Of a stretch of DNA of 64,000 bases, positions 11,583 through 35,200 are shown piece after piece. Source of the stretch: Escherichia coli (lineage in GTDB: Bacteria; Pseudomonadota; Gammaproteobacteria; Enterobacterales; Enterobacteriaceae); the NCBI RefSeq assembly GCF_041248615.1, contig NZ_CP158426.1; one strand, 5' to 3'. The notes under the pieces were generated by a model. The model was not told where the DNA came from. It saw only the letters and a program-made list of their open reading frames with translations, and did no database searches. The position numbers and the translations under genes are program-made. The number at the start of each line of letters is the position of its first letter. Within the stretch, counting starts at the first letter, position 1.

Positions 11583-11659
<77 letters not shown>

Positions 11660-11692: not shown

Positions 11693-11769
<77 letters not shown>

Positions 11770-11802: not shown

Positions 11803-11879
<77 letters not shown>

Positions 11880-13185: not shown

Positions 13186-13273
13186 TGTGATATTCTGTAT
13201 GCCGTTTTTACGGATATGACAGGGTGAGGGGTAACCTCACATCCTGATTATTGACTAAGTGCGCGTTGTTCAT

Positions 13274-13371
13274 GCCGGATGCGGCGTGAACGCCTTATCC
13301 GGCCTACAAATCATGCAAATCCAAAATATTGCAGGAGTTATGTAGGCCTGATAAGCGTAGCGCATCAGGCA
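13274..13371. repeat. BIME: two REP elements in inverted orientation
   Basis: gccggatgcggcgtgaacgccttatccggcctaca (13274-13307) and tgtaggcctgataagcgtagcgcatcaggca (13341-13371) match the REP consensus. Confidence 0.8.
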
Positions 13372-13423
13372 TTTATGCGTTTAGGGTGAGGGATAACCTC
13401 GCCCTTTTTAATTCTGAGGTGCT

Positions 13424-14724: not shown

Positions 14725-15929
14725 TAATCCACCAATAATTCCAGCGCGCGGTCAACGGCATTCACCAGCGCATCCACATCACTCTTTGTATTATATGGCG
14801 CAAAAGAGGCGCGCAGTGTGCCGGTTACGCCTAATTCTGCCAGTAGCGGCTGAGCGCAATGCTGCCCGGCCCGCAGGGCAATACCGTACTCCGCCAGCAG
14901 CGTCACCATATCGCTATGATGAACGCCAGCAAAATCAAAGGCCAGCAGGCTGGAATCCTGGCAGCGGAATGAACGAAAGCCGGGACGTTTCGCCAGCGCA
15001 TCTTCCGCCAGCGTTGCTAAGCTACGGCTCCAGCTTTCGGCCTGGTTGATATCGTAATCTGCCAGCCATTCCAGCGCCGCGCTTAATCCTATGACACCAG
15101 CGACATTTGGCGTTCCAGCTTCCAGTTTCCACGGCGCAGATTGAGTCGTGAAGCCGTCAAAACTCACTTCGTGAACCATTTTGCCGCCGCCCAGCCAGGG
15201 CGACATCGCCTCCAGCAGTTCTGATTTACCATACAGCACGCCGATACCTGTCGGGCCATACAGTTTGTGACCTGAAAAAGCATAGAAATCAATATCCAGT
15301 TGCTGAACATCCGCGGGGAAATGCACTGCCCCCTGAGCACCATCAACCATCACCACCATCCCGGCTGAATGAGCAAAGGTAATCGCTCGCGCCAGATCCG
15401 GACAACCGCCAGTAACGTTCGACATCTGACCCAACGCCAGAATCCGACTACGGGGAGTAATCAGTTCTGGCAACAAATCGACATCCGGCAGTCGCTGCGC
15501 ATTAAGCGGCAATTTCACCACTTTGGCTCCAGTTTGTTGGGCGACCATCAGCCAGGGGACGAGGTTGGCGTGGTGTTCTGCCACGCTGACAATAATCTCA
15601 TCGCCCGGTTGCAGACGCGGACGCGCATAGCATTGTGCCACCATGTTGATGGATTCAGTGGTGCCGCGCGTCCAGACGATAGTTTTATCATCCGGTGCAT
15701 TCAGTAATTGCGCCACTTTCTCTCGTGCAGCTTCATAACGCGCGGTCAGGCGTTGGGCTTCGGCAAACTGGCTGCGATGGACGTTTCCGGCGCTCAGACT
15801 GTAAAACTGTTGGGTGGCTTCAACCACGGCTTCAGGTTTAAGCGCGGTCGCGGCGCTGTCGAGATAGACGCCCGCATCCTGTAGTGCGGGAAACTGGGCG
15901 CGAAACTGCGCGGGATTAAAAACGTTCAT
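14724..15929 (-). CDS. csdA: Cysteine sulfinate desulfinase / cysteine desulfurase CsdA
   Basis: 401 aa from [16 protein letters not shown]; class V aminotransferase features ([10 protein letters not shown]); the track ORF has a 12-codon upstream extension. Confidence 0.9.
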
Positions 15930-16117
15930 GGTACTCCTCGGCTTGATGCACCGATCGTGACGCAAAATTCACTTTGATACAAGGAGAGTGCTAACCATCA
16001 GAATTATCTGGATATCCTGGCGAAGCCGCGTAAGTAACATATGCTGAATAGTGTTAGGCGTTAATTTTAGCCTGTTAATCAATACTATTAAGATTTATTA
16101 ATCGCTTTAAGGAGAAG

Positions 16118-16348
16118 ATGATGAAAAAGACTGCCGCAATTATTTCTGCCTGTATGCTGACTTTTGCCCTGAGCGCCTGTTCCGGTTCGAACTATGTGAT
16201 GCACACCAATGACGGACGTACCATCGTCTCTGACGGCAAACCACAGACTGATAACGATACCGGTATGATTTCGTATAAAGACGCTAATGGCAACAAACAG
16301 CAGATCAACCGTACTGACGTGAAAGAGATGGTCGAACTGGATCAGTAA
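16118..16348 (+). CDS. ygdI: Small lipoprotein YgdI (DUF903)
   Basis: 76 aa, lipobox LSAC, AAGGAG ribosome-binding site; tandem ATG ATG so the start could be 16118 or 16121. Confidence 0.8.
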
Positions 16349-16364
16349 TTCGCGATCGCAAGGT

Positions 16365-16570
16365 AAAAAAAAGCACCGCAATTAGGCGGTGCTACATTAA
16401 TCACTATGGACAGACAGGGTAAATGTACAGGAAGTGAAAAAAGGTAGCTTTGCTACCATGGTCTGAATCGCAGACCAATTGCAAACACAACAACACAACA
16501 TCACAACCGTAAGCCAAAAGTTCACCAGAACACGCATTCCGATAAAACTTTTCGTTCCGGCTCAGGAAGT
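16365..16570 (-). ncRNA. gcvB: GcvB small regulatory RNA
   Basis: Minus strand reads ACTTCCTGAGCCGGAACGAAAAGTTTTATCGG...GTTGTGATGTTGTGTTGTTGTGTTTGCAATTGG...GCACCGCCTAATTGCGGTGCTTTTTTTT, including the G/U-rich R1 region and intrinsic terminator; divergent from gcvA as expected. Confidence 0.9.
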
Positions 16571-16698
16571 GCCGCCACTATAGGTATTTGCTGGTAGAAG
16601 CTCAACGGACAATTTATAATGGCTCAGATTAAAAAAACTAATAGGTTACATAGTGTGATCTAATTGTTAAATTCATTTAACATCAAAGTTTAATAGCC

Positions 16699-17616
16699 AT
16701 GTCTAAACGATTACCACCGCTAAATGCCTTACGAGTTTTTGATGCCGCAGCACGCCATTTAAGTTTCACTCGCGCAGCAGAAGAGCTTTTTGTGACCCAA
16801 GCCGCAGTAAGTCATCAAATCAAGTCTCTTGAGGATTTTTTGGGGCTAAAACTGTTCCGCCGCCGTAATCGTTCACTCCTGCTGACCGAGGAAGGGCAAA
16901 GCTATTTCCTCGATATCAAAGAGATATTTTCGCAATTAACCGAAGCGACGCGTAAACTCCAGGCCCGTAGCGCCAAGGGGGCGTTGACGGTCAGTTTACT
17001 CCCCAGTTTCGCCATTCATTGGTTGGTTCCGCGACTTTCCAGCTTTAATTCAGCTTATCCGGGAATTGACGTTCGAATCCAGGCGGTTGATCGTCAGGAA
17101 GATAAGCTGGCGGATGATGTTGATGTGGCGATATTTTATGGTCGGGGCAACTGGCCGGGGCTACGGGTGGAAAAACTGTACGCCGAATATTTATTGCCGG
17201 TGTGTTCGCCGCTACTGCTGACTGGCGAAAAACCCTTGAAGACACCGGAAGATCTGGCTAAACATACGTTATTACATGATGCTTCGCGCCGTGACTGGCA
17301 GACATATACCCGACAGTTGGGGTTAAATCATATCAACGTTCAGCAAGGGCCAATTTTTAGCCATAGCGCCATGGTGCTGCAAGCGGCTATCCACGGGCAG
17401 GGAGTGGCGCTGGCAAATAACGTGATGGCGCAATCTGAAATCGAGGCCGGACGTCTTGTTTGCCCGTTTAATGATGTTCTGGTCAGTAAAAATGCTTTTT
17501 ATCTGGTTTGTCATGACAGTCAGGCAGAACTGGGTAAAATAGCCGCCTTTCGCCAATGGATCCTGGCGAAAGCCGCTGCTGAACAAGAAAAATTCCGCTT
17601 TCGTTATGAACAATAA
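16699..17616 (+). CDS. gcvA: LysR-family regulator of the glycine cleavage system
   Basis: 305 aa; N-terminal helix-turn-helix typical of LysR regulators. Confidence 0.95.
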   Translation: MSKRLPPLNALRVFDAAARHLSFTRAAEELFVTQAAVSHQIKSLEDFLGLKLFRRRNRSLLLTEEGQSYFLDIKEIFSQLTEATRKLQARSAKGALTVSLLPSFAIHWLVPRLSSFNSAYPGIDVRIQAVDRQEDKLADDVDVAIFYGRGNWPGLRVEKLYAEYLLPVCSPLLLTGEKPLKTPEDLAKHTLLHDASRRDWQTYTRQLGLNHINVQQGPIFSHSAMVLQAAIHGQGVALANNVMAQSEIEAGRLVCPFNDVLVSKNAFYLVCHDSQAELGKIAAFRQWILAKAAAEQEKFRFRYEQ

Positions 17617-34789: not shown

Positions 34790-35155
34790 GTCGACAGGGA
34801 GTCAGACAACGAAGTGAACATCAGGATGATGACACTTCTGAAGGACACACCAGGATGGTGTTTCAGGGAAAGGCTTCTGGATGAAGCGAAGAGGATGACG
34901 CAGGACGCGTTAAAGGACACCTCCAGGATGGAGAATGAGAACCGGTCAGGATGATTCGGTGGGTCAGGAAGGCCAGGGACACTTCAGGATGAAGTATCAC
35001 ATCGGGGTGGTGTGAGCAGGAAGCAATAGTTCAGGATGAACGATTGGCCGCAAGGCCAGAGGAAAAGTTGTCAAGGATGAGCAGGGAGCAACAAAAGTAG
35101 CTGGAATGCTGCGAAACGAACCGGGAGCACTGTGAATACAGTGCTCCCTTTTTTT
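34790..35155 (+). ncRNA. csrB: CsrB small RNA (CsrA-sequestering)
   Basis: Begins GTCGACAGGGAGTCAGACAACGAAGTGAACATCAGGATGATG; about 17-18 CAGGA(U/A)G / AGGA motifs seen; ends in the GGGAGCACTGTGAATACAGTGCTCCCTTTTTTT terminator; lies between syd and yqcC. Confidence 0.9.
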
Positions 35156-35200
35156 ATTCCTGCTATCCTTCGCGGCAGTTTTTCTTATTGAGGTTGCTTT

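Follow-up and report, generated by a model that had tools for sequence, protein, structure and literature searches.

A single palindrome defines the 3' ends of the GcvB small RNA and of the convergent ygdI mRNA in Escherichia coli

Bidirectional intrinsic terminators place a single G+C-rich hairpin, with an A-tract and a U-tract, between convergent genes, both 3' ends lying at its sides. Rho-terminated E. coli mRNAs end just past stable stem-loops without a U-tract, to which PNPase and RNase II trim them back, and the sequence downstream of such protective stem-loops is richer in C than in G (Dar and Sorek 2018, PMC6061677). Collision-dependent terminators, described for convergent gene pairs, combine a stem-loop with overlapping 3' ends (Ju 2019; Wang 2022 preprint). 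The small RNA GcvB is an Hfq-dependent repressor of dozens of mRNAs for amino-acid uptake and metabolism (PMC3879156, PMC2676305). Its R1 region, which is conserved, unstructured and GU-rich, pairs with CA-rich sites, GcvA activates gcvB in excess glycine, the promoters of gcvB and gcvA partly overlap, and the RNA acts chiefly during exponential growth in rich medium (PMC3879156). In Salmonella, mutation of the gcvB terminator stem relieved the repression of targets (PMC3879156).

The gcvB/ygdI locus examined here lies within a stretch of 64,000 nucleotides of Escherichia coli DNA (the window) and resembles each of these terminator classes in part. As in bidirectional intrinsic terminators, a single G+C-rich hairpin stands between convergent genes with both 3' ends at its sides, but its U-tract is present on one side only, the ygdI side reading UACAUUAAUC. 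As with the protective stem-loops of Rho-terminated mRNAs, the ygdI mRNA ends right past a stable stem-loop lacking uridines, with C exceeding G downstream; the ygdI stem-loop differs in that it is not dedicated to the mRNA, being the reverse reading of an sRNA terminator, and in that Rho dependence of ygdI was undetected in one bicyclomycin data set (LB OD 0.5). The convergent pair, the stem-loop and the overlapping ends are common to this locus and the collision-dependent terminators, whereas the gcvB direction is a textbook intrinsic terminator and ygdI 3'-end formation does not track gcvB expression. A literature search tying the term 'bidirectional terminator' to gcvB returned only unrelated uses of the phrase. 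The coordinates of the features are collected in Table 1.

Table 1. Features of the gcvB/ygdI region, in window coordinates, with the basis of each assignment.
Feature	Position	Strand	Basis
ygdI coding sequence, YgdI/YgdR family lipoprotein, 75 aa	16121..16348	+	ORF list and RefSeq annotation of the identical K-12 stretch
ygdI 3' UTR, 48-54 nt	16349..16401	+	Term-seq and TRS 3' ends
GcvB sRNA, 206 nt (transcription start 16570, 3' end 16365)	16365..16570	-	Rfam RF00022
GcvB U8 tail (A8 run on the plus strand, within the ygdI 3' UTR)	16365..16372	-	Sequence, terminator scan
Palindrome: 7 G+C-rich pairs plus a closing A-T pair, 6-nt loop; GcvB Rho-independent terminator stem-loop, on the other strand the 3'-terminal hairpin of the ygdI mRNA	16372..16393	both	
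Internal stem-loop SL3, GGTAGCAAAGCTACC then U6, terminator-like	16437..16457	-	Terminator scan
C-rich, G-poor tract, complement of R1 and surroundings; candidate Rho loading site	16454..16558	+	Base composition
R1, GU-rich single-stranded target-pairing region	16482..16508	-	Read from sequence
gcvB promoter-like site: -35 TTGAGC 16605-16600, 17-nt spacer, -10 TATAGT 16582-16577	16577..16605	-	Consensus scan
gcvA, LysR-type regulator	16699..17616	+	ORF list and RefSeq annotation
ygdI primary 3' end, LB OD 0.4	16396	+	K-12 2942870 (-), 36,630 reads (PMC7815308)
GcvB 3' end, LB OD 0.4, at terminator	16372	-	K-12 2942894 (+), 134,815 reads (PMC7815308)
ygdI primary 3' end, LB OD 2.0	16397	+	K-12 2942869 (-), 1,164,820 reads (PMC7815308)
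GcvB 3' end, LB OD 2.0, internal, in R1	16498	-	K-12 2942768 (+), 132,094 reads (PMC7815308)
ygdI primary 3' end, M63	16396	+	K-12 2942870 (-), 441,780 reads (PMC7815308)
GcvB 3' end, M63, internal, in R1	16503	-	K-12 2942763 (+), 1,692 reads (PMC7815308)

A cmscan search of the whole window matched the Rfam GcvB family (RF00022) at 16570..16365, scoring 199 bits against a gathering score of 42 (E 1.1e-46) over the full model (positions 1-204 of 204). This full-length match is the outcome of the Rfam check proposed in the initial annotation, which had placed a GcvB RNA of about 206 nt on the minus strand with exactly these coordinates. A permissive Rfam scan of 15900-16750 returned no rival RNA family above threshold, the only other matches being weak ones to Hrs13 and VqmR, both on GcvB. 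The sub-threshold Hrs13 match ('Hfq-regulated sRNA 13'; 28 bits against a gathering score of 52) covers the 3' third of GcvB (16365-16436, minus strand), and Hrs13 may be a relative of GcvB filed as a family of its own. The stretch 16050-16720 is 100% identical to E. coli K-12 MG1655 and was found in 5,425 of 5,426 complete E. coli genomes. GcvB of K-12 (NC_000913.3, 2942696-2942901) has the same sequence, length, neighbours, promoter position, R1 and terminator, with no difference, and the window thus carries the K-12 allele. In one MG1655 RefSeq record (NZ_CP032667.1, 938659-942329), the annotation table holds only protein-coding genes at this place and has no gcvB feature, despite the identical sequence.

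The neighbours were likewise as annotated at first, RefSeq annotation and the ORF list both placing gcvB divergent from gcvA and convergent with ygdI. The start of gcvA (16699, plus strand) is separated from the GcvB 5' end (16570, minus strand) by 128 nt, and the same layout is seen in 79 loci found via GcvA. The terminator had also been described as close to the end of ygdI, and the TAA stop codon (16346-16348) is indeed 16 nt from the GcvB 3' end, with 23-24 nt between it and the hairpin stem.

The anatomy of the RNA is that of GcvB throughout. The 206-nt RNA folds with a minimum free energy (MFE) of -62.1 kcal/mol (z -3.6), and the promoter-like -10 element sits 6 nt upstream of its 5' end, fitting the 5' end given by Rfam. 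The GU-rich target-binding region that had been claimed is present at RNA positions 63-89, is mostly unpaired in both the MFE and the consensus folds, and matches R1 as described, a conserved and unstructured pairing region rich in G and U. Among 25 diverse aligned Enterobacteriaceae sequences, RNA positions 51-91 (including R1) and 132-185 are invariant, while the apex of SL1, SL2 and SL3 vary. Compensatory double changes occur at five pairs, in SL1, SL2 and SL3, and the U8 tail is present alongside these stem-loops. Most sequences preserve the pairs of SL3, among which there is one compensatory position; the two most divergent sequences break them. With every testable defining feature of GcvB found, the feature is GcvB itself. 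Through R1, it base-pairs with CA-rich sites close to the ribosome-binding sites of mRNAs for amino-acid and peptide transporters, which it thereby represses; Hfq-dependent repression of amino-acid and peptide transport mRNAs is known from the literature for this exact sequence (PMC3879156, PMC2676305). A 46-aa ORF within GcvB (16397-16537, minus strand) was rejected as a peptide, the homologous ORF ranging from absent to 108 aa, with a shifting start, across the 79 loci.

The palindrome differs between its two readings in what follows the stem. The terminator hairpin quoted in the initial annotation, GCACCGCCTAATTGCGGTGC, is the reverse complement of 16373-16392, and the U8 tract follows it directly (16372..16365), so both the hairpin and the U-tract assigned to GcvB are present. 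In a 51-nt context, the hairpin has a free energy of -16.2 kcal/mol (z -3.7) on the minus (gcvB) strand and -15.4 kcal/mol (z -4.2) on the plus (ygdI) strand, with at most 1 of 200 shuffles as stable on either strand, so that a stable G+C-rich hairpin separates the convergent genes. A8 stands ahead of the hairpin on the ygdI strand and TACATTAATC after it, without a T-run; the flank after the stem, ACATTAATCA, has 3 T in its first 8 nt. The U-rich tract is therefore confined to one strand, with U8 on the minus strand and ACATTAAT (3 T in 8 nt) on the plus strand, and a consensus terminator scan found sites on the gcvB strand only and none on the plus strand. The description of the palindrome as having an A-run on one side and a T-run on the other accordingly fails, the ygdI side having no U-tract. 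In the gcvB direction, and in that direction alone, the palindrome forms a canonical Rho-independent terminator, with U8 directly after its 8-bp stem.

Published tables place the 3' ends of both transcripts at this hairpin. Ends were taken from Adams 2021 (supplementary file 1, PMC7815308; three growth conditions) and from an independent TRS study of 2023 (PMC10687069), a K-12 coordinate x converting to window position 2959266 - x as established from matching sequence strings. The ygdI ends of Adams 2021 lie 3-4 nt past the stem (PMC7815308). TRS gives a primary ygdI terminus at 2942865-2942874 (window 16392-16401), with a 3' UTR length of 54, a peak at 2942865/6 (window about 16400-16401), 7-9 nt past the stem, and a longest U-run of 2; for GcvB, it gives a terminus at 2942896-2942910 with a U-run of 8 (PMC10687069). 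The 3'-end mapping by Term-seq that had been suggested as a check thus puts the ygdI end at 16396/16397 (Adams) and about 16400-16401 (TRS), directly past the same palindrome. Of the earlier proposal that one palindrome terminates both transcripts, the part that stands is that it sets both 3' ends; polymerase release on the ygdI strand goes beyond the 3'-end maps, and because such maps report steady-state RNA ends and not polymerase release points, 'terminates both' is reduced here to 'defines both 3' ends'. Since the 3' ends of both RNAs flank the palindrome, one palindrome defines both, and the two RNAs overlap by 25-37 nt, the GcvB 3' end being exactly complementary to the last 25-37 nt of the ygdI 3' UTR.

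An independent small RNA from the ygdI 3' UTR was considered and rejected: neither an outlying ratio of 3' UTR to CDS (TRS Supplementary Data 4) nor a transcription start in the vicinity is seen, and the end therefore belongs to the ygdI mRNA.

Several observations concern the GcvB ends themselves. In the Adams data from LB OD 0.4, the dominant GcvB end falls on the first U of the tail (K-12 2942894, window 16372, minus strand), while SgrS in the same data ends at its eighth U; TRS, unlike Adams, puts the GcvB end at the last U (2942900-2942902). The first-U end could possibly arise from trimming of the tail, from the method, or from an effect of the complementary ygdI 3' UTR. The internal GcvB ends in R1 (Table 1), the one in LB OD 2.0 being dominant there, suggest cleavage or decay intermediates formed during GcvB turnover. 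A Rho-dependent region was also called on the gcvB strand at K-12 2943134 (plus strand; window about 16132, minus strand; score 10.25, p 2e-71) in the bicyclomycin data of Adams 2021, and some transcription therefore passes the GcvB terminator and is then stopped by Rho antisense to ygdI.

Conservation was followed across 80 loci fetched via GcvA, one genome per species and all from Enterobacteriaceae, together with the K-12 reference record (81 in total). GcvB is present in 79 of the 81, the other two being cut by contig ends. The terminator stem AGCACCGC/GCGGTGCT and the U8/A8 run are invariant in these 79 loci, while the loop is variable, and the ygdI-side flank, itself GcvB sequence, is near-invariant, differing by at most a base among loci. 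A covariation test of the terminator stem was uninformative, the stem being invariant in all loci. In 70 of the 79, ygdI is present and convergent with gcvB, its stop codon standing 16-45 nt from the stem; the remaining nine (Klebsiella indica, Raoultella, Kluyvera cryocrescens, Enterobacter soli and others) have no ygdI and carry the same stem and A8 run. No lineage among the 79 Enterobacteriaceae loci has a T-run on the ygdI side. Because the presence or absence of ygdI makes no difference to the stem and A8 run and no T-run has evolved, this comparison of sequences shows that GcvB constrains the element and ygdI borrows it: the sequence of the element is fixed by GcvB, with ygdI using what is present. 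In the loci without ygdI, csdA is co-directional with gcvB and starts about 65-100 nt past the GcvB 3' end, behind the unchanged terminator.

How the ygdI end is formed is best approached through the RNA downstream of the hairpin. Release of polymerase beyond the hairpin followed by trimming of the transcript is preferred, at a probability of roughly 0.5, and here we infer both the site of polymerase release and the role of Rho. Transcription of ygdI yields an equally stable hairpin 24 nt past the stop codon, and the mRNA ends 3-9 nt beyond it. Much of the polymerase would run past this U-less hairpin and come off the template further on, most plausibly through Rho that loads on the CA-rich, untranslated RNA complementary to R1; the ygdI RNA would then be trimmed back to the protective hairpin by 3'-to-5' exonucleases, and some direct, weak hairpin-dependent termination may add to this. 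The tract proposed for Rho loading (Table 1) contains 30-33% C and 10-13% G in 60-nt windows, with C exceeding G by up to 14 per 60 nt, and stands at or above the 99th percentile of the window. On the ygdI strand it occupies the stretch 60-165 nt beyond the hairpin, is untranslated, includes a 27-nt G-free run (16482-16508, plus strand), and is C-rich and G-poor because it is the complement of R1. The ygdI 3' end thus falls right after a stable stem-loop without a U-tract and is followed by C-rich, G-poor untranslated RNA, as at the protective stem-loops of Rho-terminated mRNAs. The bicyclomycin data of Adams (supplementary file 2), which cover LB OD 0.5 only, where ygdI expression is lowest, list no Rho-dependent region here on the ygdI strand. 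Against trimming, the TRS peak 7-9 nt past the stem also fits direct intrinsic termination, and the positions of the 3' ends fit termination and trimming alike.

The same TRS peak is central to the alternative of a true bidirectional intrinsic terminator, in which the hairpin itself would release polymerase at +7 to +9 despite the poor U-tract UACAUUAAU, the +3/+4 ends being nibbled products. The hairpin is stable on the ygdI strand, yet the U-tract, a defining module of intrinsic terminators (PMC6061677), is represented there by 3 T in the first 8 nt past the stem, and the consensus scan gave no plus-strand site. In all three growth conditions the ygdI 3' end is sharp and very strong, and no Rho region was called on its strand (Adams, LB OD 0.5 only); a T-run has nevertheless evolved in 0 of 79 loci. 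U-poor hairpins may also be inefficient intrinsic terminators with Rho as a backup (Dar and Sorek, PMC6061677). Direct release at the hairpin is a serious, though less probable, alternative.

Collision-driven bidirectional termination (Ju 2019; Wang 2022), in which polymerases from gcvB and ygdI would meet at the stem-loop and terminate each other, has the anatomy of that class in its favour, namely two convergent genes with a stem-loop between them and 3' ends that overlap. The expression data argue in the opposite direction, the ygdI end being 12-fold (M63) and 32-fold (LB OD 2.0) stronger than in LB OD 0.4, while no full-length GcvB 3' end was called in M63 or LB OD 2.0, and GcvB being made mainly during exponential growth in rich medium (PMC3879156). 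The ygdI end peaks just where full-length GcvB goes undetected, and collision is disfavoured for that reason. The gcvB direction is moreover a canonical intrinsic terminator, unlike the described class, and in the nine loci that have no convergent gene the stem and A8 run are unchanged, leaving collision improbable.

A regulatory overlap, with the ygdI 3' UTR as a cis-antisense partner affecting GcvB stability or Hfq loading, or the reverse, is highly unlikely: perfect complementarity over 25-37 nt, the inverse read counts of the ygdI end and the full-length GcvB end across conditions, and the dominant GcvB end at the first and not the last U in LB OD 0.4 speak for it, but control of gcvB by GcvA/glycine and growth phase already accounts for the inverse pattern (PMC3879156), both partners are locked in stable hairpins, deletion of ygdI did not reproduce the acid-resistance phenotype of gcvB (PMC2676305), the ygdI 3' UTR shows no outlying abundance relative to its CDS and no transcription start nearby, and species without ygdI keep an unchanged GcvB 3' end. 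It would be equally surprising if the abundant stationary-phase ygdI mRNA shortened the GcvB U-tail, displaced Hfq or triggered duplex cleavage, helping to turn GcvB off outside exponential growth in rich medium, or if, alternatively, ygdI read-through stopped by Rho on the R1 complement interfered with transcription of gcvB and gcvA.

The identity of GcvB and the ygdI 3' end at its terminator are both already in the public record, and the finding is correct but ordinary. It has little significance beyond correct annotation, GcvB being among the best-studied enterobacterial sRNAs. The locus does offer a clear case in which two convergent transcripts make asymmetric use of one palindrome, as a canonical sRNA terminator in one direction and a U-less mRNA 3'-end hairpin in the other, and the comparison among loci shows that the sRNA dictates its sequence. 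The ygdI side would escape gene finders and terminator predictors built to expect A-tract/U-tract symmetry.

Elsewhere in the window, a full-length CsrB sRNA is located at 34799-35158 on the plus strand (Rfam RF00018, 382.9 bits, E 2e-111), with repeated GGA hairpins and a terminator. Three tandem tRNA-Met (CAT) genes with equal scores lie on the minus strand at a 110-nt period (11583-11659, 11693-11769 and 11803-11879), and their CGCGGGG 5' end points to initiator tRNA. An Rfam match to ES036/CssrF (13307-13349, 46.5 bits) falls amid REP-like palindromes (region 13270-13411, plus strand), and a hairpin followed by T5 (about 13384-13409, plus strand) ends 13 nt ahead of the tcdA start codon (13424). 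A Term-seq 3' end at K-12 2945855, corresponding to window 13411, has 32,337 reads and is classed as 'orphan' (PMC7815308), while TRS lists it under the tcdA 5' UTR (PMC10687069).
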